Shown in pieces: positions 19,763 to 47,576 of a stretch of 64,000 nt of DNA (within the stretch, counting starts at the first letter, position 1; every line of letters begins with the position of its first letter). Where the stretch lies: positions 62,620,001 through 62,684,000 of the forward strand of contig OZ024741.1 of assembly GCA_964016885.1 (NCBI GenBank), read 5' to 3'. The notes beneath the pieces were generated by a model that made no database searches, was not told the DNA's origin, and worked only from the letters and a program-made list of their open reading frames with translations. The stretch is from Eledone cirrhosa. Lineage: Eukaryota. Both the position numbers and the translations under genes were made by a program.

Positions 19763-19800
19763 TATCTATCTATCTATCTATCTATCTATTATTTTTCTCA

Positions 19801-21142
19801 CAAGGTGTTTGCACTAACCCAGAAATGGGCCAAGTGTAAGCTGTCCCTAAAAGGCCGGGCGGAGGTGGCGAACATTTACATAGCGTCCGTCACTTACTAC
19901 CGCCTGACTGTCGTGCCTTGCCCTAAGGAAACACTCACCACCATTGAACGCATGCTCTTCCAATTTCTTTGGAAGAAGCGCCCTCCTATGGTGAGAAGAT
20001 CCATCTGCTGCCAACAACCTTCGAAAGGAGGGCTGGGGATGCCGTGGTTGATGATGCGTAGGCACGCATTAAGGCTACGGCACCTACAGGTATTCCTCAC
20101 TGGTCAACCGGTGTGGGCTCCGTCGTGAAACGAGCCTTTCCGAGACTCGTCTCGCTCACCGAGCTGCAGTCCTGGGTCAAGCAAAGATCCGGAAAACTGG
20201 GAGACTGGCACACTGAGTGTGCTCAGGCGCTCAGGGCTCTCTGGCAAGCGGGCCAGGCCATCGGTGGAGAATCCACCTCATCATTCTATAGAGGGCTGGT
20301 GGCTAGCAGGGGCGATGACACCCTTGGAGAATCGCTGGACATGGAAGAGGATGAACTGGCCAGCCTGTTCGGTAGGACTTTCGGCCCGGGACCAATGGAC
20401 AACTTCCAGAAGTCACTAGCCTGGCAGTGCTACCGGGGGGCTCTACCCGTTCGAGAGAGGCTCTACAGACACGGGCGCCCGGGCAGGGATCCCTCGAAAA
20501 AGATTTGCCCTAGATGCGTGCGTCACGAAGAAACCGTTCCGCACGCATTGGTGCAATGTCCGGGCGTGGCTGATCTGTGGGGCTACGCCGAACGACTGCT
20601 GTCGCGGTTGGCGCCAATTCGATTGACCGCCGAGTCCGTGATGACAATCAAACCGCCTCCCCTCTTCACAAAGGAAGCAAAGGCGGTTTTTCTGTGCGTA
20701 ATAGCCATGTTGAAAGAGGTTGTTTGGTGGACACGATTGAAAGGTCTGAGGTCAGGCAACTTCCTCTCTGGCCATAGTCTGGTCTACTTCTTCCGATATC
20801 ACTTCGGAAGAAGGATAAGAATGGAGAGAGAGAGGTGCTTGGCCACAGGCAGTTTTATGAAAGGTGGGTGATAGTGGCGAGAATGGCTCGTGTAAATGGG
20901 CCTTCTCTGTATACCATCCTGTAGGTAAAGAAGTGAAGGAGAGGGGAGCACCTTCTCCATGTGCTCCCCGGGCAAAGGATTGCACACTTTTTCGGGGGTG
21001 TGTGCAACCTCCATCACGTCCCCTCCCTTTTGAGGTTGTTTTCGATTATTTTAATTGTATACCCTTTTTACTCGATTTGTATGTAAACTCCCCCTTTGTA
21101 TTTGTCCCTTCTTTTTATGCCTTAATGGTAAATAAAGAAATA
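19801..21142 (+). mobile_element. 5'-truncated Tx1-clade LINE, near-identical to 28962-30302
   Basis: Direct sequence match by eye; ORFs 19745-20128 and 20113-20871. Confidence 0.95.
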
Positions 21143-21154
21143 TATCTATCTATT

Positions 21155-21317
21155 CTTTTTCTGGGTGTGTACAACCCCTGTGTAACGCCTCCCCCCTATT
21201 GGGGATATCAATTGTTATTTGTTATTTTATTAATAGTTTTATTTTCATATACCTGTATGTAAACTCCCCATTTGTATTTGTCCCCTTCTTTTGTGCCCTT
21301 GTGGCTAATAAAGAAAT

Positions 21318-23128: not shown

Positions 23129-23149
23129 TTTTCAACTAAATAATTATTA

Positions 23150-23732
23150 TAATCACTACCTTAAATTCATAGCGAAAGGCCTTCACAATGATTTTAAATA
23201 AACATACAGTATATTATTAAATATACAGTACGTACAATCATATATATATATATATATTAGTATTGGTGCTCTGAAATAGCGATGTATAGATGAATGAATG
23301 TATAGTATATTTGGCAATATACTGTATGTTTAATTAAAAACATTTTGAAGACTATTTGCTATGAGTTTTAAAGTAGTGACTTATTGTCAAATATACTATA
23401 CATACATTCATGTAGACATCACTATTTCAGAGCACCAATACTAATACCTAATTTTTTCTGGATCGGCAACCACTCTGTTTAATTACCTCTTAAATATTAC
23501 TGGAATTCTGCAAGAACCCAGCTTCTATAACTCTCAGCAGAAGCAAAGGAGTGAGTGGTCTTGATAAATGCTAACGAACGAGAAACAGGACTGTCGTTCA
23601 CTTTTCTTTGCTTTTGCCGAGAATAAGTAAGTGACATAGTCACTACTTTAAAACTCATAGCGAATGGTCTTCAAAATGTTTTTAATTAAACATACAGTAT
23701 ATTGCCAAATATACTATACATACATTCATATA
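23150..23732. repeat. Nested inverted-repeat (foldback) element; related copy at 32777-32960
   Basis: attagtattggtgctctgaaatag ... ctatttcagagcaccaatactaat (23256-23446); 23640-23730 is the reverse complement of 23293-23380. Confidence 0.8.
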
Positions 23733-23751
23733 TACATATACATATATAAAT

Positions 23752-24059
23752 ATGCAATTGGAGTCTTTAAGAAAGATTATTTACAATACCATTACCGGTT
23801 TCACAGCTACATGATTTTCAAAAGTTAAGTTAGAGAGATTTAAGGCTATGCCGTAATGTGTGCCGCATCTGATCCTTGGGAAATTTCCGTTTTATGCATA
23901 TTGCATAAAACGGAAATAAATTTTCCAGCCCATCCCCAGATGTAACACACATTACGCATAGCCTCACATCCCTCCAACACACTTAACTTTCGAAATTGAT
24001 ACAACTCTGAAACCGGTAAATAAATTGTAAATGAATCTGCTTAAAGAGTTCAAATGCAT
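23752..24059. repeat. Older diverged foldback with perfect 16-bp core
   Basis: Core atttccgttttatgca-tat-tgcataaaacggaaat; outer arms diverged but colinear (taccggtttca / tgaaaccggta). Confidence 0.75.
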
Positions 24060-24470
24060 GTTCAACTTCTTTTTCCTATATTTTTACCTGTGTAGTATAT
24101 GAAAAGCTTATACAAATGATATATTAACAAATGAGTATCTATTTATTGCTCTTGCTTGATAGGACTAAGCTCATGCTGGTCAGCGATCCCAGAGGCTTAA
24201 ACTCACAAATTGGAATATTTCACTAATGTGAATGTTTTTGTATAGTGTTGGTTTAAAAAAGAAAATTTCGACACTTTTCCATCAACCCCACAATCCTAAA
24301 ACAAAACCACAACCACCACGGCCACCATCCTTATCTCTCTCTCCCCCCTCTCTCTCTCTTCCTCTCTCTCTTTCTTTCTCTTTCTCACACACACACACAC
24401 ATTCAGACACATCCCCTTCGTGTAATTTAGAAAAAAAAATCAACGTTTGTTGCAGCCCCCCCCCTACTAC

Positions 24471-25065: not shown

Positions 25066-26805
25066 ATGGATTCCAACAACGAAAAAAAAAAATTTGAAAA
25101 ATTGCATGACAATATTAATACCACAAACAAAGACACAACAAACACAAAAATAACATTTGAAAGCAACATCATAACAGAAAGCAAAGCAGACGACAAAGTC
25201 AACAACAACAAGATTTCATTTGCACAAACAAAGAAATCTCTGACATATATACCTGAAAATATTTCAGATGTTGCACAAAGAATCACAGACGCCAAACAAT
25301 ACATAAGTGAAGGAGAGAATGGTATTTTATCGGTAAAAATGCCTCAAGAACTCACCAAAGACATTGAAAGTCGAACGGTCGTGTTCCGCACCATCAACAA
25401 CATTTCTAAAAAACCTGAACAGCCAACTCAAACAGATATCAAAACAGTACTCACAGAAGTACTTAATGAAACCACTTTCATAAGAAAAGACAGACTGTAT
25501 GGAAGCCTAGCAATTATTATGAAGAACGAATCGGCGGCAAAAAAATGTGCTTTGTCACCGATTCGTTCGAAAATGTTTACCTTTTATCCATCTTATATGG
25601 GGAAAAGAACTCAACGCATATGGCTGGATGCAATGATGCCAGATGTGGACTACTGCTGGCTCATAGCTGGCTTCATAGATCCAGTGAATGACAACGTGAT
25701 TTCCATTGGGAAAACCACAGGCAATGCGTTCAGTGGAACAGGTATAGAGCTTGTAGTGCAAATGAAGCCTGAACGTATCGCCCAAATACCCGACAGAATC
25801 CTATTAGAGGGCCACGGGTATATAAACATTAGCGTGGAGGGGAGAAGGCCGTTCTGTCATATATGTGCAGGCAGAGAGCACCTGAAAGCCGCTTGTCCCC
25901 AACTCAACAAAAAGAAAACCCTGCTACCAACACCAGCTCCACCACCACCACCACCACAACAGATAAACAAACAACAAAACTCAGTCCCACCCAACCCGTC
26001 CCTCAGTAAAACTACACCACCACAACAACACAAACAGTCACAACACATTACCCCAAAACAAAATACAGGCCCACCCAACCCCTCACTCAATAAAACAACA
26101 CAACCACCGCAGCCACAACACACAACACAGTCTAACATAGTGACATCCATCTCCCCCACAAAGAAAACCAACACGGAAACATTACCAGCAAACATACCTC
26201 TTCCCTCCAACACTGAAGATAACCCAACGAATTCGGAGGAAGAAACGGAGTCCTTCAGACAGATTAAAAGAAAAAAAAGAAAACATGTGCAAAACACACA
26301 AGGCCAAACAACCCCCACCCAAATGTCAACACAATCCAACAAAACACAAAACACCCCTCCAGCAACAAACAAAACCAAACCTGCCCCTCCCCTCTTCGAA
26401 ACACTCACACCATCCGAAAAAAAGACATTACACTATACTTACATCAACAGAAACAATAATAAATTAAATGAACTCATAAACAATAATCCTTCGGTACAAA
26501 CCGAAGGTGTAAACTTTGTTTCTTCAGAAAACTACCCACATTTAAAATTAAAAAAGATCCCAATGAACCTCTACCAAAAACTAAAAAAGGATTTTAAGGA
26601 GGACGTAGGACCACCCTCTGTCAAACCCATAAACCGCGTCCTACTAAAAAGCTTTCCCCCTCCCCTTCCCCTCCCCAACACAACTCCAAACACCCCAACC
26701 CCACCATACACTGACGACTCCACACCACCACAAGACACCCCTTCACCCAACACCCCCGACCCCATGGAAGTCGTGCGAACCGAACCCCGGGAAGCAGAAA
26801 GGTAG
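25066..26805 (+). CDS. Tx1 LINE ORF1 (CCHC zinc knuckle, P/T/Q-rich tail)
   Basis: 579-aa ORF with CHICAGREHLKAAC; the true start may be the ATG near 24893 with an A-run frameshift. Confidence 0.85.
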   Translation: MDSNNEKKKFEKLHDNINTTNKDTTNTKITFESNIITESKADDKVNNNKISFAQTKKSLTYIPENISDVAQRITDAKQYISEGENGILSVKMPQELTKDIESRTVVFRTINNISKKPEQPTQTDIKTVLTEVLNETTFIRKDRLYGSLAIIMKNESAAKKCALSPIRSKMFTFYPSYMGKRTQRIWLDAMMPDVDYCWLIAGFIDPVNDNVISIGKTTGNAFSGTGIELVVQMKPERIAQIPDRILLEGHGYINISVEGRRPFCHICAGREHLKAACPQLNKKKTLLPTPAPPPPPPQQINKQQNSVPPNPSLSKTTPPQQHKQSQHITPKQNTGPPNPSLNKTTQPPQPQHTTQSNIVTSISPTKKTNTETLPANIPLPSNTEDNPTNSEEETESFRQIKRKKRKHVQNTQGQTTPTQMSTQSNKTQNTPPATNKTKPAPPLFETLTPSEKKTLHYTYINRNNNKLNELINNNPSVQTEGVNFVSSENYPHLKLKKIPMNLYQKLKKDFKEDVGPPSVKPINRVLLKSFPPPLPLPNTTPNTPTPPYTDDSTPPQDTPSPNTPDPMEVVRTEPREAER

Positions 26806-26838
26806 GTCACTACACTCTCCTTTGGCTCTGCCGCCCAC

Positions 26839-29800
26839 ATGGATGTGTTAAGAGTAGGATGTTTGAATGCACGTGGCCTGGGCTCAACTTGAAAGCAAGC
26901 AAAGCTTCTAAATGACCTCAGGTCATGTGGTATAAATGTAATGGTTATCTGTGAGACTCGGATCAGCGTCGTGCGGCAGCTGGCCCCTACCTTCGATGAC
27001 TTTGAGGTGCATGCATCTCTCTGTCAACCTGGAGGTGAGGGTGGGGTTGTCGTACTGCTGCAAAAACACCTGGGTCTTGCCGTACAGGTTGTTCACTCGG
27101 ACCCGGAGGGTCGTTTGTTGGTGCTAGACGTTGGCAGTAGTGAAGGTGCGGCCTTGAGACTGGTCGCCGTCTACTCCCCTTTCGGAGCGTAACGGCCCGA
27201 CTTCTTCCAGCGTTTGGAGACTTTTCTGGGAACGTCGCGTTCCCTGCTTCTAGCGGGGGATTGGAATGACATCCTAGATGCACGTTGGGACTATGCAGGA
27301 GCATGTCCTAATAGAGGGGGGGGGGGTGTAACAGCCTCAAGGGGTTACTCGACCGTTTTAACTTGGTCGATAGATATCGACTAGATTTTCCAACTGTGCC
27401 TACCTGGACTTGGAGAAACCACAGTGGTCAATCTAGATCGTACTTAGATAGATTCTTAGTTAGAAGTAAGGATAGGGACATATTAAGCTGTCCAGAAATG
27501 CGCACGGTTGGCTATACGGATCACAAATTAGTGACCTGCGTAGTCAATCTCGAGAAAACACATAAACAGGGTCCCGGTTACTGGAAACTTAATTTGTCTT
27601 TACCGGCAAAAGAGACTTACAGAAACCGGATTAGCAGATTAGTTAAGGAGAGGTTGACGGGTGCAATCGTCAACAACCGATGGTGGGCATCTCTCAAAAG
27701 AGAGATTAGAACAGAATCAATAAGTTATAGCAAGATGTTAGCTGCCGATAGGAATAGAAACGAGAAAGAATTAACAGGTAAATTAGAAGAGGCAATCAAG
27801 AGCGGAGATGTGGCCAGAGTGCTGGCATCGAGGACGGCCTTGAACCAGTTTTTCGATGCAAAGCACGAAGGCTGCGTCATTCGAAGTAAAATACGTGCTC
27901 TAGGTAATGAGAGGGCCAAAGCCGTTGGCTGGGCCCGCGTGACAGAAGCTAAGAGTGGAAATCGATCCACCATCCGGTCGTTGCAAGACGAGGATGGACG
28001 GGTGATCCGGGAGCCTAAGCAGATGTGCGAGGCCTTTCAAAGGCACTTTGCCCGATTATTCGGGGGAGGCGAGGGTCCGGGCGGGGACGTGGATTTCGGT
28101 CCATACCTCGACGGCCTGCCGCGTCTCTCGAGCGAAGAGGCAGAGTCCTGCGAGGGACCAATCTCGGCTGATGAGATCGGAGATGCGCTGAGCCAATGCA
28201 ACAGGCGCAAATCTCCAGGTCTCGATGGTATACCTTACGAACTTTATTTAGCAATGCGCCGGTCTTCTTCTCCGAACTCCTCGAAGCGGTCTACTGCAAT
28301 TGGCAGCAGAACGGGAGAATTCCTTGTTCTGTAGGGGTAGTCTCGCTGGTGAGGAAGGACGAGAACAAGGGGGATAGTATAAATAATTTTCGGCCCATAA
28401 CCCTGCTAAACACAGAGTTAAAGATTTTGGGCAAGGTGTTAGCAAAGGGGTTGGCGCTTGTCGTGGGTAGCCTGGTGGGAGATGCGCAGACATGTGCTAT
28501 CCCATCCAGGTCCATTCACAATAACCTCCACCTCATGCGATACATCATAGAGAGTGTTGGCAACAAACCCGGCTTCGGTGGGGCCCTGATCAACTTGGAT
28601 CAGTCTAAGGCCTTCGATAGGGTCGACCATGGTTACTGAGGAAGTTAGAGTTGTTGCAGGGTATCCCCCTGGAACCAGGATTGAGCAAAGCGGTGTCGGC
28701 CTACGCAGATGACGTAACAGTAATGGTATCGACCGACTCGGATATCGTGGCGATCGGTACCTTACTGGAGGATTACGAAAGGTAGTCAGGAGCGAAACTG
28801 AACCGGGAAAAATCCATCGGGCTGCAACTCGGAACGTGGAGAGGCAGACCGATGCCTCCCGACGGTGTCGCCGGACACTGGACGGAGGGCCCGGTAAAGT
28901 TGCTTGGGGTCTGGTTTGGACCGGACCTCCAGGTGGAAAAGAACTGGGACGAGGTTACGAACAAGCTGTTTGCACTAACCCAGAAATGGGCCAAATGTAA
29001 GCTGTCCCTAAAAGGCCGGGCGGAGGTGGCGAACATTTACATAGCGTCCGTCACTTACTACCGCCTGACTGTCGTGCCTTGCCCTAAGGAAACACTCACC
29101 ACCATTGAACGCATGCTCTTCCAATTTCTTTGGAAGAAGCGCCCTCCTATGGTGAGAAGATCCATCTGCTGCCAACAACCTTCGAAAGGAGGGCTGGGGA
29201 TGCCGTGGTTGATGATGCGTAGGCACGCATTAAGGCTACGGCACCTACAGGTATTCCTCACTGGTCAACCGGTGTGGGCTCCGTTCGTGAAACGAGCCTT
29301 TCCGAGACTCGTCTCGCTCACCGAGCTGCAGTCCTGGGTCAAGCAAAGATCCGGAAAACTGGGAGACTGGCACACTGAGTGTGCCCAGGCGCTCAAGGCT
29401 CTCTGGCAAGCGGGCCCGGCCATCGGTGGAGAATCCACCTCATCATTCTATAGAGGGCTGGTGGCTAGCAGGGGCGATGACACCCTTGGAGAGTCGCTGG
29501 ACATGGAAGAGGACGAACTGGCCAGCCTGTTCGGTAGGACTTTCGGCCCGGGACCAATAGACAACTTCCAGAAGTCACTAGCCTGGCAGTGCTACCGGGG
29601 GGCTCTACCCGTTCGAGAGAGGCTCTACAGACACGGGCGCCCGGGCAGGGATCCCTAAAAAAAGATTTGCCCTAGATGCGTGCGTCACGAAGAAACCGTT
29701 GCGCACGCATTGGTGCAATGTCCGGGCGTGGCTGATCTGTGGGGCTACGCCGAACGACTGCTGTCGCGGGTGGCGCCGATTCAATTGAGCGCCGAGTCCG

Positions 29801-30084
29801 TGATGACAATCAAACCGCCTCCTCTCTTCACAAAGGAAGCAAAGGCGGTTTTTCTGTGCGTAATAGCCATGTTGAAAGAGGTTGTTTGGTGGACACGATT
29901 GAAAGGTTTGATGTCAGGCAACTTCCTCTCTGGCCATAGTCTGGTCTACTTCTTCCGATATCACTTCGGAAGAAGGATGAGAATGGAGAGAGAGGTGCTT
30001 GGCCACAGGCAGTTTTATGAAAGGTGGGTGATAGTGGCGAGAATGGCTCGTGTAAATGGGCCTTCTCTGTATACCATCCTGTAG
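26839..30084 (+). pseudogene. Tx1 ORF2 (APE endonuclease, RT, CCHC), disrupted
   Basis: MDVLRVGCLNARGL, GDWN, SYLDR, TDHK, FRPITLLN, DQSKAFDRVDH, AYADD; about 7 lesions including stops at ~26890, 27190, 28783, 29656 and a deletion at ~28635 removing QGCPLS. Confidence 0.92.
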
Positions 30085-31179
30085 GTAAAGAAGTGAAGGA
30101 GAGGGGAGCACCTTCTCCATGTGCTCCCCGGGCAAAGGATTGCACACTTTTTCGGGGGTGTGTGCAACCCCCATCACGTCCCCTCCCTTTTGAGGTTATT
30201 TTCGATTATTTTAATTTTATACCCTTTTTACTCGATTGTATGTAAACTCCCCCTTTGTATTTGTCCCCTTCTTTTTATGTCTTTATGGTAAATAAAGAAA
30301 TATATCTATCTATCTCAACCACACACTCTCTTTTACCACCCCCTTTCCACAGAATATGAAATGTATTTTTAGGACTTCAATATAATAGATTACACTTCGG
30401 TAAAAATGTTAGAAAAATTCTCCACTTTCAGGTTCGTGCTAGAAACCGAACAGGGATGAAAAGAAATAAAAAGTGATTTGATGAATGGTTGCGTTGACAT
30501 TAACGCCCTCAACTAGTTAACAGGTTATTTAGTAAATTAATTTCACTAATTAATTCTGGAATTAATTCTAATCTGCCAACACTTGTCGACGTTTTTTCTC
30601 AAGAATCTTTTATGAAGCATCTGAAATGGTAGGTGACATCACATACCATGTCATCACCTGAAGGTGTCTAAAATGTGATTAAAACCATTCAGCTGTTATA
30701 CTTCAGTTTTTCCTAATACACTGAGAAACACAGTAAACTATAATGCTGAACACACGAAACTCTTAAGTATGGGTCTGCAATCTTCTTTACTTTGCACATA
30801 AAATACACATACACACATACACCATCCTACACATTTAGACACACCCAGAAATGTCCCCATTCCCTCTATCACACGCAATTTTTCTGTCTCCCTTTACTAG
30901 TTGTTTATAGAATTCTGATAATGATGTCCATTCCTTTAACGATGTATTTAATAGTTGAACAGACCTATCATGAACCCAAGAGTTCTCTTGCAAATAGGGC
31001 ATGAGTATATATGATAAGGCTGGTCTGGGTAGATGTAATGATGCTAGCATAGGCATATGTGATGATGGGGCATGTTTGTATTTGATAATGGAGGCATGTG
31101 TATATGGGATGTTGATGGTATGGGTATATTTGATAATTGTGGTTTGTGTATATGTGATAAGAATGGTGGGATTAATAAT

Positions 31180-31365
31180 TGTTTCTACTTTTGGCACAAG
31201 GCCAGCAATTACACCAGTGCATTACTGGTGCTTTATTTTATCGACCCCGTAAGGATGAAAGGCAAAATTAACCTCGGTGGGATTTGAACTGAGACCGTAA
31301 AAGGCCGTAACTCTATACTGCAAAGCATAGCGTCCGACCCTTTACCGATACTGCCAATCCACCGC
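31180..31365 (-). mobile_element. tRNA-derived SINE
   Basis: Same family as 4580. Confidence 0.9.
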
Positions 31366-32343
31366 ATTGATAATGATAACTATGGTTGCATTTGTCATAG
31401 CTCTCTTCTATTTCTTCTCGTTGTTTTCTTTCAATGTAAGGCACAAGCTCAGAGTAGGTAATGTCCTTGATGTTCTGGAAGCACCTCACGTGAAAGTGTC
31501 AAATGCCTTAATGTGATCACTGTAAATAACCCTAGCGTCGTAGCCATAGTGCTTTGTTGTGATAGATACCGCTTGCTATCGGAGACTTATGCGAAGGATG
31601 GGAGACAGGTTTTCTAAATGAATCAGCACCGAAGTCTCCCAAAGACAACCGATAAGTTTAATACGGTTCTGGATTTCGATGCTGCCATTCTAAAAGAAAA
31701 GGCTCCTCCTTTATTTGGAAGATGGCACTACTGACAACTAACCACCACTAAACGTAAAGGCAGCCTAAAACTTAATTAACGTTATTTTCAACATTTATTG
31801 CCTATTTGCGTTGATGCATATTACACCCAAACACACACATACACACACACTCAAATATATATATATTCGGATCTAGCTGTCGAAACGCCAGGGGCTCAGA
31901 CGTCGGGGTCTTGTCTCTTTTCATATATATATATATATATATATATTTATTAACATAACAGATTAAAGTTTAAGCAAAGAATCGCTGCTTTCACCCTTAA
32001 CGGGATCTTCTGAAACTAACAAAGTCAATCTGTAAACGCAGAACTGGATATTTCAAAAAACGTTGCAACCGGAGGAAGACAGGAAGACGATACTTTGGTT
32101 CGTGGTAACGTTCCCTGGCAAAGAACGGGAAAAAACGAATAATACGTCATTAATAGGAGCGGTGAAAAACAATTACGCGCAAAGACAAAACCACGTTTAT
32201 GGTATAAAAGAGGTCGTAGACTAATGTTCTCTTAGGTGGTGCATAGAGACGTTCTCTGGCAATGAACGAAAAAACGAAGATAATAAGTCATGTGTGGAGC
32301 GTGGCGAGCCCTCTTTGGATTTTAGTCTTCAATTTTATTATTA

Positions 32344-32374
<31 letters not shown>

Positions 32375-32381
<7 letters not shown>

Positions 32382-32760
32382 AGAAAAAAGAGAATCAGTG
32401 TTGCGACGAAAGGAATTTATTGGACATATTACAATTGTTTCTCATGCGACCAGCTCGAGGTACGATCGATGTGGTGATCAAACCTGACTCTGAAATCGCG
32501 CGGTCCTCGGATACGTCTCGATCCTACGAAGCAGATTTTCATATAGGAAAATCTGCTTCGTTTGATCAGGTTTGATCACCACATCTATCGTGCCTCGAGC
32601 TGATCGCCCGAGAAACAATTGTAATATGTCCAATAAATTCCTTTGTCGCAACACAGATTCTCTTTTTTCTGTGATATCATACTCTGCTCTACGAGGGCAT
32701 CGAGTACTCATACGGCTCACCGCATACGGATGCTTTAAGCATCCAACACCAATTATATAT
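32375..32760. mobile_element. Foldback element (family D) in (TA)n; second copy 60955-61210
   Basis: Arms 32375-32488 / 32565-32678 are reverse complements; inner hairpin cgaagcagattttc..gaaaatctgcttcg. Confidence 0.85.
32423..32517 (-). ncRNA. Hammerhead ribozyme family D, U4>C degenerate copy
   Basis: GACGUAU-CCGAGGA-long stem II-GAAAC-AAUU-GUA-AUAUGUC. Confidence 0.65.
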
Positions 32761-33281
32761 ATATTTATATATATATATTAGTATTGGTGCTCTGAAATAT
32801 CGATGTATACATGAATGTATGTATAGTATATTTGGCAATATACTGTATGTTTAATTAAAAACAATTAGAAGACCATTTGCTCTCAGTTTTAAAGAAGTGA
32901 CTACGTCACTTATTTTTGGCAACGGAGGGGAGAGTGGCTGCCAGTCTGTTTCTTGCTGAGAGAGAGGAGGGGGGAGAGAGATAGTAAACAATGAATTGAA
33001 TTTTAAAACAACCAGCCGAATGTAAAACATGACCAAGTTATGAAGTGTTGTGTAAGCTTCAGCGAACTAACCACCATGTCCGTAGTTAGATACGAAATTA
33101 CAGATTATTGTGAGGAGCCAGAGAATCTAATGAAATCAAGTGTCTTTGCAATGTAGATGTTATTAAATGCTTTTATAGTAAAATCTGTTTACATAGAGTT
33201 ATCTGAGCATAAATATAAATGAATATTTGGCGCTATATAAAATTGCATAGAACGTTAATATATGGTTAAAAGTGTTCCATG

Positions 33282-33352
33282 TATTTTATTATGCGCATTT
33301 CAAAAACAAATATCATCATGGGATGATATTTGCGTTCTCATCAGATAAAATA
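33282..33352 (-). ncRNA. Type I hammerhead ribozyme (family B), intact
   Basis: Exact reverse complement of 33445-33515. Confidence 0.88.
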
Positions 33353-33444
33353 GGGAGACATGGTATGAATATGTTGATTTAACATATGTTGATTTAACAC
33401 TTCACTGCTCGCAGGTGTTCTTTAAGGTTCATATCATGCCTCCC

Positions 33445-33515
33445 TATTTTATCTGATGAGAACGCAAATATCATCCCATGATGATATTTGTTTTTGAAAT
33501 GCGCATAATAAAATA
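33445..33515 (+). ncRNA. Type I hammerhead ribozyme (family B), intact
   Basis: Stem I UAUUUUAU/AUAAAAUA; CUGAUGA 33453-33459; 16-bp stem II with one mismatch; GAAA 33496-33499; palindromic stem III AUGCGCAU; AUA cleavage predicted after 33507. Confidence 0.9.
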
Positions 33516-33891
33516 CATGGAACTCTTTTAACCATCTTTTGATTTTATATTATTTATACTCCAATCCTATAAACTGTTGAGTGCTACTTATCCGATATTT
33601 GCATTGCTTTATTGTGCTACAATAAAACTCGCCTCCTACATATATATATATATGTATATATATATAAAAAGGAACGATCGACTTTTTTGTCAAATCGGAC
33701 CGAGGGAACAATGTTTCCGTTGGTCTTTCCAATTGCTAATACTATCTATCCGTCGCAACTCCAGGTAGAAGGAGCAACGTGAAATAAAGTGTCTTGTTCA
33801 AAGACATAACGCATCGCCTGGTCCAGGAATCGAACTCACAGCCTTACGATTGCGAATACAATCCTCTAACCACTCAGCCACACGCCTTCAC

Positions 33892-33951
<60 letters not shown>

Positions 33952-34032
33952 GGTAAACAGAAATAACAATACAATCGGTACAGTATATGGAAGGGAAATA
34001 TTAGGTTAACGCTTGATATAGCAGGAAGAGGG

Positions 34033-34068
34033 TCTTAACGTTTCGGACGCTAGTCCTTCGCCAGAAGA
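34033..34068 (-). ncRNA. Minimal hammerhead (family E), A6>G variant
   Basis: UCUU-CUGGCGA-A-GGAC-UAGC-GUCC-GAAAC-GUU-AAGA. Confidence 0.6.
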
Positions 34069-34328
34069 AAGAATGAGAAATAAGATTGAGATTGAGGGGA
34101 CGGCGGGATGATAAACAACACACACTCATATATATATATATATGAGGAATGACTGGTCATACAATTGTCTCACACCGTCTCTTTACTGCAAGGACGCCTA
34201 CCTAAAAAGCAATCCAGTCCGGTCTTCTGTTATTTTTACATGATTATATATATATACAAAAGTGTGTGTGCGTGTCGGTGTGTATGTGAGTATGTGTGTG
34301 TGTGTGTATGTATATGTTTGTATATATA

Positions 34329-34503
34329 CAGTGAAATTCCGTTATAACGAAATGCTCAGGGTATAAAAAAATCGTTGTAACGAAAAATTCTTTATAACGA
34401 GATCGACCGAAACTAATCGAGCGTTTGTTTGTTATTACTTCGGGGATTGAAAAAATTTCGCTATACTGACAAATTCGTTATAATGTTAACGGAATTTTAA
34501 CTG
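34329..34503. mobile_element. Tc1/mariner/pogo-type MITE
   Basis: TIRs cagtgaaattccgtta / taacggaattttaactg, TA flanks, internal gttataacg repeats. Confidence 0.8.
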
Positions 34504-37427
34504 TATATACATAAAATCAACTGCACTGTTCTTGTTATTCGCTAATCGGAATAATTCCGTTTTAATCCCATATCTTCTGAAGATATTTATTTTCATTCTC
34601 AATACATTTAAATGCGATTTGAAATATCAATGAAGTTATTTTAATAAATATTTCTAATGGGTTTTCTTTTGTTTTTTTCGAATTTTATTTATGAAAATTT
34701 GATAAATTTTCGAGAACTGCGGTTTTACTCTTCTTTCAAAATTTTCAAATATGTTGAGAAAAACTGTTAAATAATTTATTTTATTTGACATTTTGGAATA
34801 AAATTCGAAATTTATCGAAATTTCCCAGATTTGATGTCTCTAATGTATATATCGAATTTCCCGTTTAAAGTATTTGGTTATTTGACAACGTGGTTATTTA
34901 ATCGTTTTCCTATGATTTCGCAATTTCCTATATTTGAATTTAAATATTTAGACCGGTAAAAACATAAAAAAGCATTACATAATTGTTTCTGCTAACCTTA
35001 TTACATCATAAAGTTTCTTTATTGCTTTTATATTAGATTAGTCTTCCTATATAAGATTAGTCTTCCTAGAAAACGTATATTATTGCATATTAAGTGATTG
35101 CTATTTGGTAATTCATGCATATGTCATGAAACTATAACATTTATAATTTTTGTCAAGAATAGTCACCTATCGGTATTAAGTAATTATCTTAAATCGATAG
35201 GGGATAGATCATTTTTCTGAAGTGGAACAATTTGAATAATTAGATAAATTAATTAATTACAAACAACATCAATTATAAACTTATTGTTTAATTTTACATT
35301 TCGATTCTACTATCAACAATATTATGATGATAACATCTGGTCTAAGAATTTGAGATTTATTCTCGTTATCAATTCCAACCAAATCAGAAAAATGACTTCC
35401 CACTCTTTGCGTTGTGACTTAACGACCTTCCGAGGTAAGCTTTGCGTTTCAGTTCTACGGGTCAATTTAATCGACTTATAGGGGACCTCCCAGACATTTT
35501 CTAGTCAAAAGTACGGATGAAAATCCCATACGAATCTTCATGTATACGAGTTTTCACAATGATTACAGATGTTGCTGGAGACCCGTCACTTCTGACGAGG
35601 AAAGCTCCGATTGTTTAAACAACGAAACAGCCTGCTCGTGAAATTAACGTGCAAATGGTTAAGCATTCCACAGACACGTGCTACCATAACGTAGTTCCGA
35701 AGGACATTCGGCATGACATCATGCATGACAAGTCTGACACTTTGAATTAGAGATACTACTCATTCGTATCAACTGAGTGTACAGAAGAAACGTAAAATAA
35801 AGTGTCATGCTCAAAACAGAACGCGCTGCCGGGAATGAAACCTTACGATCGTGAGCCGAAAAAACAAAACAATAAACTAACGGTCGTAGTATTCTTGGAA
35901 GCTCTCTCAGTGGCTCGCCTAAGTCGCCTAAGTGAAATCTTTCTGATTTTTTTTACCCCAACGTTTCAGTCGTAATTTATTTTTTTAATCATTTTTACGA
36001 TCGAAGTGTACACATTCTGAAGAAACAAATCAAAACAACCTGAGTTACCACCATTTTTTTTTATGTGGACATGAATGTAAATTGGCGCTGATGTTGAGCC
36101 ATAACACATGCGGCCCGCTTCTCGGAAAAGGTTGCCCATACCTGGTGTAGTCAATTAAGTAACCCACGTTATATTTAAGTAATTCTGACTATGATAGACA
36201 CGATAGACAAGCTATTGACCACCAGCTAACTATAGCCACTATAGAACAGCTGTTGACCACCAGCTAACTATAGCCACTACAGAAGAGCTATGCAACATGT
36301 TTACCAACAACACCACGACATTTCAATTTTACAGTTTATTTCGTGTTATACAGTGTAAATAACATGTGTCCTCTTCACTAACTTAAACAACCAAAACAAA
36401 TGTCATAAACACTAAGACTTGAACAGTGAATACTGACAAGTGTGTGTGTAGTTTACACATCTTGTCTTCTGACTCACCTCCTTCTGCATCCATTTATTCC
36501 TGAGCAGAATCCTGAAACACATCTTCCAGCGAGCAAGTTCTGTCAGAAGCAGCCGTCTCTAATTGATACGGCTGGATCCCTTAAGCGAGACCAACAATAT
36601 AAACTTCACTTTAAATGGAATTATATTAGCTAATCTCGCCAGGATTTAATTACTTACCTGAGAAGGAATCTACCAGTTCATGTATGTTTCATTTAAATGT
36701 TACTTTAACTGTTTAAGGTATTCAAAGCTACTATCGGTATCCACATATACGAGTGAGAACTGAAACGTTCATAGGCTGACTATAATGGAGTGATGCTAGA
36801 GCTATGAAATCTTGCATGCTTTAATTTCAACTCTCCTTATATTTATACATGGTGTCCCCCCAAAAATGCATACACAAAGGCTATGCATTCTAATAAATAT
36901 TGCCTGTATAGGTGATCAAAGTGTGTATACATTTTTTTTTGGGGGGGGGGGCACCTTATATATATATAAATATTGTTATATTTGGGGAAGGTCATGTTAT
37001 AATATTGCAAGAAAAATATTGTAAAACACACTCACTGATTGGTTTTCGTTTCAGTACATTTTTATATTTCTATGGCAATCAATGTTTATCATTGATAGCG
37101 CAACAGTTAAAGTTTGTACATATGCAGCAACACTAACTTCGATTCTTTTAATTCTATTTACACTGTGCACTCTACAGCTGTAACACTGGAATACAAACGA
37201 AACAGACCTCGTAACAGCATCGAGTGCTTCGAACGTCACGCCGCCTGTAACTGTTGTTACAAACGTAACACCCCCCACATTTATATGTACTTGATTAAAC
37301 CTTGGAGTTTTGTATGTATGTAATAAGCAATAAAGTTTCATAACAAGTTGCACATCTGACTTCCTATTATCACCCCTCTCTCTCCCCCCGCTCTCTCCCT
37401 CTTTCCCTCTCTCCATCTCTCACCCCC

Positions 37428-37467
<40 letters not shown>

Positions 37468-37519
37468 GTAAGTATGTATGTATACGTACATACATATATG
37501 TATACAGACGTACAGTAGC

Positions 37520-37594
<75 letters not shown>

Positions 37595-37930
37595 CATACA
37601 GGCACACATATATATATGTACGTATCAGTTTAGCGAACATTTAATATAATGTTCGCTTTGTTCGTTTGTAAACAAACTGACAGCCTGATTTATGCCGTAC
37701 GGTGTTAAGGCAACCACGTCACCATTTCTTTTTTGTTTTTTTTTTGTTCAACACTGACACAGGAACGATGTACTAGTTTCAAGCTTGTTAGCTATCGTCA
37801 GCACCGTATACCCTTCTGCCAGATGGTTGAACGTTCGAAAGTATATACTTTCCTTATGAAAATTAACGGCTGAGCAGTAAGTGCCGAACTAAGAGTGAGA
37901 AATGAAATTTCGTTTCATTCTATTCCATTT
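37468..37930 (-). mobile_element. Diverged monomer of the family C hammerhead element (see 54959)
   Basis: Colinear similarity to 55020-55410 (gaacattta.tataatg, gtttgtaaacaaac, ttgttcaacactgaca.aggaacg). Confidence 0.8.
37765..37807 (-). ncRNA. Minimal type I hammerhead (family C), intact
   Basis: ACGGUG-CUGACGA-U-AGCU-AACA-AGCU-U-GAAAC-UA-GUA-CAUCGU. Confidence 0.82.
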
Positions 37931-37951
37931 ATATATATATATATATATATA

Positions 37952-38452
37952 TATTGTTATACTTTGGGAGGGTCATGTTGCCAATAAGAAACACACGCAC
38001 CAGTTGCTTTCACTTCAATTTAATTTATTATATATTTATAAATTTACAAATTTATAAATTTCTGGTTGGTTGGTTGGTTCCACAACCAGATAGTTGTTTA
38101 TATATATATAGTCATAGTTCTTTCGTCACACACAAACAAAATGGCGTAGGATAGAAGAAAGGAAAGGCACAGAAACGAAGAAAGAAATCCCCAGTCACTG
38201 AAGAGGTCACAGAGTGTGTGACGAAAGAACTATGACTATATATATATATAAACAACTATCTGGTTGTGGAACCAACCAACCAACCAGAAATTTATAAATT
38301 TGTAAATTTATAAATATATAATAAATTAAATTGAAGTGTAAGCAACTGGTGCGTGTGTTTCTTATTGGCAACATGACCCTCCCAAAGTATAACAATATCG
38401 GTTTCAACACACGATTTCAGATAAAGAATCTTGCTAAACAAATTCAGAAACG

Positions 38453-38456
<4 letters not shown>
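37952..38456. mobile_element. Inverted pLTR-only foldback of the Penelope family at 1205
   Basis: Arms 37952-38133 / 38214-38397; 38140-38456 matches the reverse complement of 1205-1490; (TA)n on both sides. Confidence 0.88.
38193..38237 (+). ncRNA. Minimal type I hammerhead (family A), intact core
   Basis: AGUCA-CUGAAGA-G-GUCAC-loop-GUGAC-GAAA-G-AA-C-UA-UGACU; cleavage predicted after 38232. Confidence 0.8.
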
Positions 38457-38546
<90 letters not shown>

Positions 38547-38877
38547 TCTGCTGTATTGGGGTCGGGAAGACAACAAATCAAATAAGTACACTATACATTG
38601 TATTACCAACGATTTATTAGGCTGATTCTATCTTATCAGATAACATCAGGCTAATAAATCAAATGTTTATGTTCTATAACAGTTGAATATATATAACTCT
38701 CAAAATCCTACAGACATTTCGGACTATACGCAACATTCCAATGGATGCGACCAATTGGCAGAGTCGTTAGTATATATATAATGAAATTATTGTGTAAAGT
38801 GCTCAGGTGCACTACAACTCGTCAATATAGTACATAGAATAATACACAAATGTCAGGGAAGTACATGTGTGTATGTG

Positions 38878-40422
38878 TTAGCTGTAGTGTTGGCGGATCT
38901 CGGGAAGCATGGAGGCCTTAAAGGATGCAGTGTCTCGACAGCTAACAACTGATGCAGGTAGTTTGTTCCATGCTTCAGCAACTCTGAGCGTGAAAAAATG
39001 TTTCCGAAAGTCACAGGAACTGTGCTGTTTTCTTACTTTGTGGGCATGTCCACGTGTGTTAGACACATGGAAATCAAAAAGGTACTCAGGGTTGTTGTTG
39101 GCAACATGGTTAACAATTTTGTGGGTGTTTACCAAGTCAGTTGCCAGGCGTCGGAGCTTCAATGAATCCATGCCCAGGGAAGCAAGGCGCTCAGAGTATG
39201 GTAGATGCCTGATGGAGGGTATTCGCTTGGTTGCACGTCTCTGAACAGTTTCCAGGCGGTCAATGTCCTGAGCAAGATAGGGGTTCCAGACTGGTGATGC
39301 AATTTCTAAGTGTGGTCGCACCATAGCTGTATACAGCCTTAAATAGATATCTGGAGAGCGGCTGACAAAGGTCTTGCTGAGTGATGCTAAGACACCCTCG
39401 GCCCTCTTGACAATTTTAGAGACGTGCCTCGTCCAACGCAAATCGCTGCTGACCGTAATGCCCAGGTCACGTTCACAGGAAGACTTCTTGATATTAGTGC
39501 TGTGGAGGGAGTATGTGGACGCTGGGTTTTTACTCCCAAAATGCATGGTGGTGCACTTGTCCACAGCTAGCTTGAGTTGCCAGTCTGAGATCCATTGTTG
39601 CATTGTGTCCAGGTCAGACTGCAAGCAAGATCTATAGTGTTCAGGATCTGTCCTTTTTATCTCAAGGTACAGCTTGATGTCGTCTGCGTACTTTAGTACT
39701 GTGGCATTCCTTAAGTTGGCATCTATGTCATTAATATATGCCACAAACAAAAGGGGGCCAAGAACAGATCCCTGTGGTACACCAGATGACATCTCATATG
39801 GTGAGGAATGCTGTCCCAGAACCGTGACTACCTCTCTTCGACTGAGAATGAAGGACTTCAACCAGTTAAAAAGATCATCCCTCACACCCATTGCAGAGAG
39901 TTTTGCCATAAGCTTTTTGTGTGGCGCAGAATTGAAGGCCTTCGCAAAGTCAAGGTAAACAACATCCACCCATGAGCCGCCATCAGTGATCCGGGTGATG
40001 TCCTCAAGAAACTCTATAAGTTGATCACAGCAGCTGGAGTTGGGGATAAATCCAAATTGCGAGGGCCGGATAAGACTGTGAGAGATCCAGAAGTTCCAAA
40101 GTGTTTCTCTGACACAGGATTCCATCAGTTTGTCAATGCAACTAGTAAGACTGACTGGACGATAGTTCACAGGTGATGTGCGGTCACCCTTTTTGAACAG
40201 AGGAATGACACTGGCAGTTTTCCACTGTTCTGGAGTAGCACTGTTGTTCAGACAGAATTGGAAGAAGCGTGATAACTGGTGTAGAAAGAAGTACCCACCA
40301 CGTTTAAGAAGCAGGTACGTAACACCATCAAGACCAGGAGAGGCATGGTTGCATTTATTTTTTAGGTGACGTGGCAGCAATGCAGGTGTAAATTCCATGG
40401 TTGTAATAGAGTCCGGTGTCAT
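38878..40422 (-). CDS. CR1 ORF2 reverse transcriptase portion
   Basis: 514 aa with NYRPVSLTS, YLDFAKAF, GVPQGSVLGPLLF, KYADD, RDLG, RGH..K..RKHFF..RV...WN.LP. Confidence 0.92.
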   Translation of the reverse strand: MTPDSITTMEFTPALLPRHLKNKCNHASPGLDGVTYLLLKRGGYFFLHQLSRFFQFCLNNSATPEQWKTASVIPLFKKGDRTSPVNYRPVSLTSCIDKLMESCVRETLWNFWISHSLIRPSQFGFIPNSSCCDQLIEFLEDITRITDGGSWVDVVYLDFAKAFNSAPHKKLMAKLSAMGVRDDLFNWLKSFILSRREVVTVLGQHSSPYEMSSGVPQGSVLGPLLFVAYINDIDANLRNATVLKYADDIKLYLEIKRTDPEHYRSCLQSDLDTMQQWISDWQLKLAVDKCTTMHFGSKNPASTYSLHSTNIKKSSCERDLGITVSSDLRWTRHVSKIVKRAEGVLASLSKTFVSRSPDIYLRLYTAMVRPHLEIASPVWNPYLAQDIDRLETVQRRATKRIPSIRHLPYSERLASLGMDSLKLRRLATDLVNTHKIVNHVANNNPEYLFDFHVSNTRGHAHKVRKQHSSCDFRKHFFTLRVAEAWNKLPASVVSCRDTASFKASMLPEIRQHYS

Positions 40423-40473
40423 AGGTGGTGGAGATGGTACACTCTGGTCTTCAATAGTGAAAATGCCTGCATA

Positions 40474-41660
40474 TCATTCAGCAATGAGCTCTGCGCATTC
40501 CTTGGGGTCGTCAGTAACCTGGCTTGTGTGGGGATTGCTAAGAGGACCAACTGGAGAGTAAGGCCTCTGCTTTGAGTGAACATACTTCCAGAACACCTTA
40601 CTGTCAGGGCTGGTTGCTATGCGCTGCTCAAATTGAAGCACTGCCTTTTTTGTCACCTGTTTGAGGTGGTTGGACGATCTATTTCGCCTCTTCCTATTAA
40701 TGTCTGATTTGTGAAGTTTGTACTCACGTTCAGCATTGCGCCGTTCTTTTCTGGCAAGACGGACTGCTGCAGTCTCCCAAATAGCGCTTTTGGGATGTTT
40801 TTCCCGCTTACGTGGCACCGATGCTGCACATGCTGTCCATATTGAGCTCAGGATGTTCTGGAGTACAGTGTTGACATCTCCAGAGTCGTAGAACTCAAAC
40901 CAGTTTGGCCGTTGCAACTCGGTGCAGTAACAGTTCCAGTCTACTTTATTCCAGTCAAAATGAGCAGTTTGGAGATAGTTGTGGTTCTTTTTACTGCCCA
41001 TGAGGGATAGATTGGCAATGATCATAGCATGATCAGAGTCACCTAAAGGTTCCTCAGCAGTAACACTAATGACCGTTGCAGGAATAGTGGTGAAGAGTAG
41101 GTTCAAAGTGTTGTCACCTCTCGTTGGTGAGGTGACCACCTGGAACCAACTCGAGTCCAGCACCAGCTCAAGGAAGTCATTTGCAATTGGCGGCCAACGA
41201 AAGGTCTCCCAGTCAATCTCAGGGTGATTGAAGTCACCTGCAATGAAAACATAAGTGCCTGTCTTCCTGGCAGCAGCTCTGAGGATATCACAAAGTTGAG
41301 TGTCCTGATGGTCATTTGGGGGACGGTAAACGACTCCAAGTAGCAGTGTTGACATGGTCATACGTATATCGCAGAAAAAAACTTCCTGCTGTGATTGGTT
41401 CAAATCAGCACAAGGAATTGCCGACAGATTTGACTGAACGTAGACCATTACACCACCACCACGACGATTAATGCGGTCTTTACGAAACAGGTTGTAGCCA
41501 GTCATGCTGAAAACCCATCACAGAGTAAGGGATGTGCCCAAGTTTCCGTGACTGTAATGAAGTCCGGGTTGATACTTTTGACGTAGGAGTCAAAAAGATG
41601 AATCTTATTGCATAGACTACGTGCATTCAAGGACCGCAACTTGTACTTTGATTCCAGTCT
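40474..41660 (-). pseudogene. CR1 ORF2 APE endonuclease portion (frameshifted at ~41515 and ~40470)
   Basis: LNARSL, TVTETW, RKDRINRRGGGV, VYRPP, GDFNHP, PTRGDNTLNL, SDHAMI. Confidence 0.9.
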
Positions 41661-41695
41661 ATGATTATGTGCAGGGGATGGCAGGTTGTTCTGAT

Positions 41696-42930
41696 TTAGT
41701 TTCCCAGAGTTTTTTCAGTTTCTTTATTGTCAGTTGTTGTGGGTACAGTATTTTCAGACCAGCTGGTGTCTCTTTTCCATGATTCGCCAGCCTTAACAAA
41801 CTTCCATATCTGCCCATCATCTCGTAGGCTGAAGCTTTCATGTTCTGCCGAGCTGCGGTTTAGGGAAGCTGCAGCACGCAACTTTGGGCGGACATCAGGT
41901 GGAAGACCAGGACGTGTTCGGAAAGCAATCCGACTTTCACGCCTAGCTTTATCAGAGGCTACAAGGTATGAACGTGCCTCAGTTGAGTTTTAAAACGACA
42001 GTCTAATTAACCTGGGTTTCGGGCCTGGTCGGCCAAGGCGTAGGGAACCCTTTGCGGGAGCACAGCCCAGGTCTTTGGATGAACTGGCAGCAAATGCCTG
42101 AAGATCAACTATGTCTTCCGGCACACCAATAGCAATCACTTCGTGGTTTGCAGATTCAGTGGCATTCTCAATGCGTCTAGGTTCAGCATGAGGTACGCGG
42201 AGATTTTTTAACCAGGCATTCCGGTAAGATCCCTCATTGTGGGGTTCTACACGAACGCTTGATTTTATTTCCGCTATTTCTTGACTTAAAGCGGAAATCA
42301 TTTGCCGTATTTCCTCAAACTCCGTATTGACGGTCGGTTTTTGTTGTTGTTCTTCTCCTTCAACAGGCATGGTAGAAGACACAGTCGTCGGTTGTTGTTG
42401 TTGAAAAGTAACGGGTGAGGAAGACATGGGTTGCTGTTGTTGATGAAGTCCTTCAACGGGGGTAGTAGCAGAAGCTACGGTCGTTGGTTTTTGCTGTTGT
42501 TCAGGAACAATGGTAGAGGAAGACACGATCCTCGGTTTTTGTTGTTGTTGTTCGGGAACAATGGTAGAAGACACGATCTTCGGTCTTTGTTGTTGTTGTT
42601 GTTCCGCAGCAATGGGAGAAGCAGGCATACAGTCCAGGCACTGAAAGGACCAGTTTGTTAGCTGGACCATCTCCCAGAGTCCATCCATCGTAGCAATATG
42701 ATGTTTCTTATTTTGGCCTGGGATCTTCCGGAAGCCTGTGGCTCATTGAAGGCAGACAGAGATGCGACAGGTTCCACATTCGACCCAACGATTACGGAAC
42801 GAGTTTTCGGGTTCCGTACAGATATGGCAGGTGTGATCTTCTGGGCAATGTTCTATTTTGGAACATCGACCAGTTTTGTCGCATACTTCATCGATGGATA
42901 TCACCATGGCAATTTTGTTATTTCTACCCA
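41696..42930 (-). pseudogene. CR1 ORF1 with PHD-like finger and Gln-rich repeats, frameshifted
   Basis: CHIC...WVECGTC...FQCLDC; RLGRPGPKPRLIRLSF; QQQQKP repeats. Confidence 0.75.
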
Positions 42931-44171
42931 TCCGTAGAAAAACACAGAATGTAAACAATATAGGTTTAGCGCACTTGATTACGATAGAAATAAAATGTCT
43001 GTTTTTTGTTTTGTTTTTTTGTGTATTTTGTTTCCGTTTTCCTAAATGTTGTGTGTGTACAGAAGAGTCTGTGCATGTAAACAAATAAATATGCTGCGTA
43101 AGTTAAATGAAACGTACTGTAGAAGGCAGTTGTTTATTAACAGCGAAATAACGTTTTTTTTTCCTGATACTGATTCTTTATAATAAACTTTCAATAATAT
43201 TTTTTTCAAATTATTAACTTTCAGCTGCTAGTATATATATATAATTAAAAGGTGTATGTGGGTTAGAAGCGAAGTCAATGTTCAGAAATATTTTACCAAT
43301 GTAAATTGGTAAAATTGGCCGGTATAATGTCTCACACGAAATAGTGTGGTTTCTTCTCACGTGTGTGTATATGCATATGGTATATATCTGTATATAAATC
43401 TGTGTGTATATTGTTGTTTATATGTTTTGTGGAGTACTTACTGCGATCCTTAAGGAATGTAGTGATTTGTTTTATTTTTTTCCTTTTTCCCCGTTCATGT
43501 CCACACGTGGTTTGTTGGCGAAAATCAAGTCAAATTATATATACTTCGTTAAGATAATTCTATCTTGAAACTGGTACTAGTTGTCAGGGAACAGTCAAAG
43601 TAATTGTAATAATGAATATTGTAATCCATCTGACATGTGTTTAAAGGGCAGTTTTTGGTGAAAATATTATATTTTGTTTGGTCAAGACGTGGTCAAGCGA
43701 CCTTCCTTGTCGCCATTTTGGCCGGATACATGTTTTGCGCTATTTGTTCCTGCTCTGAGTTCAAATCCTCCCGAAGTCAATTTTACCTTTTATCTTTTCG
43801 AAGTCGTTAACACATTTACTTCTATACTTACCAGGGATGATTCTTCTCATATATCTCTTCCACACTTTCTCTCCCTTTCTCTGGACGAAATCAGCTGTGT
43901 TTAGCATTTGACATGGAATGAGTTCTCCCAATCTTAAAGACACGTCGCATGTCATGATGGTGCCCATGCGTTACGGATCCATACACCAATTCACATATAT
44001 GCTTACATACATACACACATACATACACACATACATATATTGGAAAAAACATTGTGAAATTATAAAACCAGGACATACATACATACATACATACATACAT
44101 ACGTACGTACATACATACATAAATATGTACGTACATACATACATACATACATACATACATACATACATACA

Positions 44172-44202
<31 letters not shown>

Positions 44203-44204
<2 letters not shown>

Positions 44205-44812
44205 GATGGCTGCCAACTCGTTTTCGAGTACGGCCACTACTTTATATCCATGTAGGAGAACCCCTACCGATGCGCTGAACGAGTGTGACTTTTTAGTCCA
44301 GCCATCGACTTGAAAACTCTGGTACAAACACTACACTTGTGACAATTATTGACACATAGTGCTTGACCCATGGTACCATGTGACGGCAAGTGCAGAGAGA
44401 TCTCCAGATATAAAGCAATTCCTGTGCTGTGAAGCTTTTATAGTGAGCAAAGGCACTGCACAAAGCCAGTCCCACTCTCTTAACCAAGATAATATTTACC
44501 AAAAAGAAGAACAAGTCAACATTATTGGATACCATCAGGCTTGCAGGTGTTATATCAGAGTTTTCCTTCTCCTAGAATTCTGCCTTGACAAAGGCTAAGG
44601 GGTCATCTCTCCCGGTGATTTTGGATGGCCATTGACTCTTAAGAGCTCCTTTGCCCTTTGGCAGGTTTTGATTTTAGTTCAGCAGGATGTCCAAAGTCAC
44701 CCTCCTCACCAAGAAACCTTGGTGGGGTTGCCAGTTTAGTCACCAACGACCCGACCATGAGACAGGTTGTACTAGGATACATGTTACCAGTAGCACCAAC
44801 TGGTGACCTGAC
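44203..44812 (-). mobile_element. Bipartite non-autonomous RTE-derived retroelement with (TATG)n tail
   Basis: RTE-like 5' UTR motif ctaggagaaggaaaactctga; 3' end encodes HKCSVCTRVFKSMAGLKSHTRSAHR* (44341-44264); copies at 47577-47942 and 60294-60808. Confidence 0.7.
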
Positions 44813-44861
44813 ATATATATATACATATATATATACATACATATATATATATTTATATATA

Positions 44862-47366: not shown

Positions 47367-47576
47367 TATATACACACATATATATACATTTATATATAAT
47401 AAAGTATATATCCCTACACGCAAAAAGCGTATAGGGACACATGTATTGTCTAACCATATGCCAATGTGGTTCAATGGCAGTTTAATAAATTAACGAGCCA
47501 GAACATATATAATCAAGTTTCAGCAAATAAGAAAAAGTTTCATAAGAAATAAAAAAAAAATACATACATACATACA

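Follow-up and report, generated by a model that had tools for sequence, protein, structure and literature searches.

A mirror-image pair of hammerhead motifs most likely formed by head-to-head joining of two truncated Penelope-like element ends

Introduction

Penelope-like elements (PLEs) have been described as leaving inverted, 5'-truncated copies with a one-sided tail (PMC8557442, PMC3846280), and a head-to-head arrangement with palindromes at the junction is also on record (PMC3846280). In the endonuclease-bearing PLEs of the Neptune, Nematis and Hydra types, which target (TA)n, the inverted pLTR pairs consist of head-to-head 5'-truncated copies with a hammerhead near the 3' end, a tail at one end only and palindromic or duplicated junctions. 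In Schistosoma, hammerheads occur mostly as solo motifs from truncated PLEs, with a palindromic helix III and low in vitro activity, and dual minimal hammerheads lie about 100-700 bp apart on opposite strands (PMC4209133); the supplement of that paper also gives a truncated element with a second, opposite-strand hammerhead copy at its 5' end. Cleavage by related PLE hammerheads is weak, or takes place only with protein (PMC4209133, PMC11167929). A further group, the animal non-LTR retrozymes (PMC7229834; bioRxiv 10.64898/2026.07.22.740005), comprises short non-coding, high-copy repeats with type I hammerheads in head-to-tail tandems, and has been proposed to derive from PLEs (bioRxiv 10.64898/2026.07.22.740005).

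Work on a purified PLE protein, predicted to be a dimer, indicates how such copies may arise (PMC11167929). On AT-rich DNA, the protein both cuts and extends the two strands. It has two internal start sites on the RNA, and the distance between them accounts for the tail. The hammerhead of that PLE cleaves only with protein and is dispensable for insertion in vitro.

Here we describe a foldback at 33262-33535 of a 64-kb stretch of DNA (the window), which carries a hammerhead motif in each arm and belongs to a repeat that we call family A. It shares the features of the inverted pLTR pairs listed above. However, its tail measures about 80-100 nt, compared with 30-40 bp in the PLE literature (PMC8557442), and its left end lies outside a TA run, unlike the ends of the (TA)n-targeting pairs. 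The motif has the type I topology of PLE minimal and variant hammerheads (Cervera and de la Pena 2014; PMC4209133), and shares with them a U-rich stem I, a long stem II and a palindromic stem III suited to a dimer. In contrast, its stems are longer (8 bp in stem I and 15-16 bp in stem II, versus 4-5 and 7-8 bp in Schistosoma), its palindrome is 8 nt long, and it departs from the PLE minimal consensus in having G-U for G10.1-C11.1 and no unpaired H after the core. Family A resembles retrozymes as a short non-coding, high-copy type I hammerhead repeat, but those are head-to-tail tandems whereas this locus is an inverted pair without a tandem unit.

The family A foldback has the architecture of a PLE insertion, a class of retroelement remnant that is already known. 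It differs in the longer tail, the long stems and a tail-start motif common to three families, of which the tail and the motif are small new points. Our literature search, with most subscription journals and repeat databases outside its scope, returned no description of these hammerhead families.

Results

The window consists of animal-type DNA rich in (TA)n tracts, SINE-like repeats and LINE fragments, a repeat landscape that we take to resemble that of octopus genomes. Matches to RVT_1, endonuclease or zf-RVT mark LINE-type remnants at 38878-42688 (-), 18882-21262, 25066-30084 and 51161-54393. One dispersed SINE-like family has copies at 4545-4764, 11226-12202, 17379-17598, 31145-31364, 49259-49400 and 59380-59521, both inverted and tandem near 11230-12202, and a tandem array with a period of 82 nt occupies 48480-49217. 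Foldback repeats that adjoin (TA)n and contain no hammerhead (32775-32915, 23149-24062 and 49461-49618) are possibly the ends of hammerhead-less PLEs.

A descriptor search of both strands identified the type I hammerhead core (CUGANGA, GAAA, NUH, stems I-III) in both arms of the family A foldback, each with an 8-bp stem I and an 8-nt palindromic stem III (cores at 33453, +, and 33344, -). In the right copy, stem I (33445-52/33508-15) encloses the core (33453-59), stem II (33460-95), GAAA (33496-99), the palindromic stem III (33499-33506) and H17 (33507). Cleavage is predicted after the H17 of each copy (33507 and 33290), the former being the site named in an earlier note on this DNA. That note had also reported two intact mirror-image hammerheads, one per strand, and the 81-nt ribozyme regions indeed have the same letters on both strands. 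No variant fell on a core position among the 40 of 93 read-mapping variants listed. Across the window, the search yielded 7 perfect-core hammerheads versus a mean of 0.01 (maximum 1) in 100 block-wise dinucleotide shuffles, and 11 motifs versus a mean of 0.27 when one core change was allowed. Since 7 perfect cores were found where shuffles gave 0.01, the motifs are not due to chance; the descriptor behind these counts was adjusted after a relaxed scan had been seen.

The make-up of the ribozyme differs in part from what had been proposed. The 8-bp stem I and the palindromic stem III stand, but stem II forms 15 pairs over its 16 positions: 33463/33492 is a C-U mismatch, and the closing pair is G-U. 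This closing pair (G33460-U33495) takes the place of G10.1-C11.1, and many copies have an A at 33460. In the folding model, stem III of the monomer has a pairing probability of 0.001. A two-molecule fold is predicted to form the intermolecular stem III with a probability of 0.96 and a trans stem I with 0.84, at a computed energy of -40.5 kcal/mol for the dimer compared with 2 x -10.3 kcal/mol for the monomers, which bears out the expectation that a dimer is needed. Because the monomeric stem III is so improbable and G10.1-C11.1 is absent, the term "canonical" is too strong. Rfam is blind to the motif: no family matched in the 64-kb window at the gathering score, and the 34 weak matches in 32000-35000 included no hammerhead, being mostly miRNA models on hairpins or microsatellites.

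The two arms (33262-33369 and 33428-33535) are 108 nt each and align without gaps, with 3 mismatches (33273, 33358 and 33363) and a perfect match over 84 bp. The fold energy of the foldback is -182 kcal/mol (z -27), and 0 of 200 shuffles folded as well. The earlier note had described a foldback of 274 bp. However, the element spans 33262 to about 33639, and the repeat takes in most of what had been called the spacer (Table 1). The locus combines a short inverted copy with a direct copy of greater length, the truncated 5' ends of the two meeting at a filler that shows as a 15-nt tandem duplication (33369-33383 = 33384-33398). From H17, the distance is 51 nt to the short end and about 130 nt to the long end. 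The left end at 33262 falls 23 nt short of the main short end of the family and consists of a short AT stretch only, the nearest (TA)4+ run being 378 nt away. Neither a target-site duplication nor an empty site was observed at the foldback.

Table 1. Coordinates of the family A locus, of the other hammerhead foldbacks and of the Penelope-like remnant in the window
Feature	Position	Strand	Basis or remark	Arm mismatches	Cores
Inverted 5'-truncated copy of the repeat 3' end, tailless	33262..33369	(-)	equivalent to 33428-33535		
Type I hammerhead motif, left copy	33282..33352	(-)	core 33344-33338, H17 33290		
Locus-specific junction filler, copy of 33385-33397	33370..33382	.	depth and sequence comparison		
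Direct 5'-truncated repeat copy: most of the "spacer", hammerhead, tail	33383..33639	(+)	read depth, loose ends		
Type I hammerhead motif, right copy	33445..33515	(+)	descriptor search, folding		
One-sided 3' extension (tail)	33536..33639	(+)	loose ends of other copies		
ATACTC-N-GAGTR motif, tail start	33556..33583	(+)	also at tail start of families B and D		
(TA)n tract adjoining tail, likely target site	33640..33665	.	sequence		
Family A foldback	33262-33535			3/108	both whole
Family B foldback	63596-63980			2/185	one with point change
Family C foldback	55015-55944			20/452	one with point change
Family D foldback	32375-32677			6/113	one arm cut off inside stem II
Family E foldback	37951-38398			1/183	one arm cut off inside stem II
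Decayed 5'-truncated PLE	1205-2510	(-)	RT thumb, cysteine linker, GIY-YIG, hammerhead E, tail, (TA)n		

Four of 12 public sequencing runs (X1, X5, X7 and X10) were mapped on 32985-33637 at 80% likeness. In X1, depth (summed over contigs, and not a copy number) was 12 on the left flank versus 36,200-2,015,193 on 33271-33637. Because flank and repeat differ in depth by three to five orders of magnitude, and 3,113 contigs and 5,093 RAD reads match 32985-33637, family A is a high-copy repeat. Two other organisms also carry it (25 and 5 contigs, with the left flank uncovered), and the left flank is missing in the three runs other than X1. High depth spans 33381 to 33637, the end of the mapped stretch, and climbs toward the 3' end of the repeat. 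The 100 nt to the right of the foldback are part of the repeat, and 33383-33427, most of the "spacer", is its own upstream sequence. Copies in all four runs extend past 33383 with other letters (loose ends), and contigs of the left arm run past 33369 into sequence resembling the reverse complement of 33398-33427 (X5, X7). Depth at 33380 was 229 in X1, 12 in X10 and 0 in X5 and X7, compared with 36,200-50,267 over 33381-33424 in X1. The 13-nt junction 33370-33382 is the sole part specific to this locus.

Other copies stop at 33545-33558 or near 33634-33639, about 80 nt apart, and continue into (TA)n, as read among the 19 of 198 loose-end entries listed. Behind 33550 and 33558, (TA)n loose ends were present in 8 and 26 contigs of X1, in 198 and 191 reads of X10 and in 1 contig of X5; behind 33634 they were present in 110 reads of X10. 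Other inverted junctions occur as single contigs (33350-33441 in X1 and 33362-33505 in X7). The joints 33305-33493, 33308-33489/92 and 33315-33482 were excluded from this count, being probably due to the self-complementarity of stem II. The locus has one direct copy and no head-to-tail tandem units. The X1 loose-end consensus before 33383 has 10 letters in common with 33529-33538, which faintly hints that family A may include partial tandems. At 33501, within the stem III palindrome, about half of the X10 reads from one of the strands are altered, probably at one or a few deeply read loci. Pattern scans of metagenome contigs returned 2 matches, both 20-nt chance matches in bacterial coding DNA, and those of viral contigs and prokaryote genomes returned none.

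The long, near-perfect inverted arms and TA-rich flanks could also suggest a MITE or Foldback-type DNA element that is mobile as a 274-bp unit, with a hammerhead present by chance in its inverted repeats. In such an element the arms would be the termini, and its copies would have the interior in common. Here the repeat continues about 100 nt past the right arm and takes in 45 nt of the spacer, with depth increasing toward its 3' end, and the tail lies outside the arms. Moreover, the junction has a depth near that of a single copy, in contrast to the very high depth of the arms, and other junctions and solo copies exist. Junction depth, tail and solo copies largely refute a DNA element of this kind, which we regard as very improbable.

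The relaxed scan of the window gave 20 hammerhead sites, of which 12 were kept, in six families; the remaining 8 (11333, 28168, 35575, 38770, 24285, 10930, 5719 and 3130) were dropped as likely chance. All five hammerhead foldbacks have an outward-pointing ribozyme strand and a one-sided tail, and family A alone has two whole cores. In the number of arm mismatches, A does not stand out among the five (Table 1). For B, D and E, the (TA)n end of the inverted arm coincides precisely with the tail start. Solo copies exist for families C, D and E, those of D and E with a tail. At 14 of 16 element ends a (TA)4+ run lies within 3 nt (the exceptions being the family A left end and one end of F), compared with 9% of random positions within 10 nt, a count that is partly circular because the ends were picked by eye and partly at TA runs.

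The families vary in form. Family B (63596-64000 in the window) is a near-perfect palindrome with 185-bp arms, its right copy reading GGAA for GAAA; its stem I and 8-nt palindrome resemble those of family A, and blastn of A against B or D returned no similarity. Family D (32375-32752 and 60957-61197) has a hammerhead with a 62-nt stem II domain and comprises a foldback with a tail of about 75 nt and a solo copy with an intact core. Family C (54959-55944) shows a partial tandem of about 420 nt and an inverted copy, with a solo relative at 37579-37932, and is the best retrozyme-like candidate in the window. The family E foldback (37951-38457) has one whole hammerhead (38198) and a tail of about 58 nt. 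Family F (34036-34068, -) is a solo minimal hammerhead with one core change, placed between microsatellites and close to the published PLE minimal consensus.

The earlier note had suggested that in read-through RNA the ribozyme could be masked by its own antisense copy, and that initiation in the central spacer would give cleavage without masking. The folding model agrees with the first part: masking by the antisense copy is complete (stem I probability 0.0), and a read-through RNA would be a 108-bp duplex without a ribozyme fold. On the plus strand, unmasking holds only for a start close to the arm (33428, stem I probability 0.73) but not for starts at 33370, 33384 or 33400 (0.006-0.007), the element's own upstream 45 nt being predicted to block stem I. 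A switch of this kind, selected by the host, would accord with the two intact cores and with the bidirectional promoters raised as a possibility for inverted pLTRs in PMC3846280. No promoter was found; the scan used bacterial models, which are unsuited to animal DNA, and stayed at chance level. Two intact cores do not require selection, because at 1.4% change per arm both would remain intact with a probability of about 0.70 from age alone. The left flank is absent from the three other runs, and conservation is therefore unsupported. Furthermore, the foldback is a locus-specific junction of two high-copy repeat copies, and the four other foldbacks of the same plan all have one core mutated or cut off, which speaks against a purpose-built pair. 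We give a host-selected switch very little credence; the ribozymes at this locus are most likely passengers.

Family E, one of the five foldback families, has a direct link to a PLE-type frame. A six-frame motif search of the window returned one GIY-YIG signature, at 1947 (-). It belongs to a decayed frame (2471-1644, -), broken by stops and shifts, with a CxxxxCxxC linker and a GIY-YIG domain (Pfam 24.0 bits, cut-off 22.6); weak Pfam matches (E 0.09 and 0.45) were treated as chance. A linker of this type has been described for Neptune and Nematis PLEs (PMC8557442). In a tblastn search with 151 RT-related proteins (P0001, a relative with RT motifs, and 150 more retrieved by it), 82 matched the window (best E 5e-39), and every match fell on the minus strand at 1500-2500. 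Seven of these proteins were scanned, giving 2 GIY-YIG and 1 RVT_1 matches, all below the Pfam cut-off. About 210 nt downstream of the decayed frame lies a family E hammerhead (core 1428, one core change), followed by a tail and (TA)n; the copy matches the E foldback at 80% identity over 335 nt. The same 151 proteins found no PLE frame near family A in the window. Its PLE membership rests on architecture, since no such frame is linked to it.

It could also be that a solo repeat inserted first and acquired its second arm later at the DNA level, by fold-back repair or a template switch, with no retrotransposition involved in the inversion. The atypical left end, away from a TA run, would fit this history, as would the 84-bp perfect match of the arms and the 13-nt filler, a local copy of neighbouring sequence that appears repair-like. 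However, all five foldbacks share the same polarity and a one-sided tail, and the inverted arms of B, D and E end in (TA)n at the tail start, unlike what random repair would leave. Nor do the arms diverge differently from the unpaired parts (3/216 versus 5/147 near-fixed differences, the latter drawn from the 40 of 93 variants listed; Fisher p 0.28), and homogenisation of the arms or selection on them in family A is not supported by this comparison. Taken together, a DNA-level origin of the second arm seems to us unlikely, if less so than the DNA element or the switch.

The sequence ATACTC-N10-20-GAGTR has 5 matches in the window versus 0.96 expected, and 3 of 100 shuffles reach 5. Four of these coincide with a tail start (A, B, D and the D solo copy), where the short ends fall. 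As the pattern was drawn from those same copies, it is a lead only. A hairpin at this motif is predicted in B and D, is unclean in the D solo copy and is shifted in A; with the hairpin inconsistent in these last two, we claim a sequence motif and not a conserved fold.

Discussion

We consider it highly probable that the foldback consists of two 5'-truncated, hammerhead-bearing 3' ends placed head to head, most likely by a single insertion of the PLE (RT/GIY-YIG) type. In such an insertion, the PLE protein would cut AT-rich DNA on both strands and prime a cDNA from each end. One cDNA would begin at the far start site and keep the tail, and the other would begin further in and be tailless. Both may then have stopped early, a short filler copied from a template joining their truncated 5' ends. 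PMC3846280 proposes self-priming on an antisense template, which could lead to the same outcome by a different route. The hammerhead itself would serve the RNA cycle of the parent element, through a dimer formed by the palindromic stem III and probably with the help of protein. The parent could be an autonomous PLE, or else a non-autonomous unit that is short and resembles a retrozyme.

A broader and more speculative proposal, which we hold as possible but doubtful, is that one PLE enzyme serves families A, B and D, which would be short hammerhead elements of a non-coding kind, that the shared motif marks the start of reverse transcription by this enzyme, and that two-strand priming by an enzyme acting as a dimer has left its record in the thousands of foldbacks across this genome. 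If true, the mechanism of PLE integration would be readable from the genome statistics of foldbacks.

The single family A locus is ordinary retroelement debris, and its value is as a pointer. The density of hammerheads in the window, about a dozen motifs belonging to six families within 64 kb, implies that this animal genome is very rich in them. Young copies with intact cores are clean substrates for the question of what role the hammerhead plays in PLEs, and the shared tail-start motif is a testable candidate for a reverse-transcription start signal.
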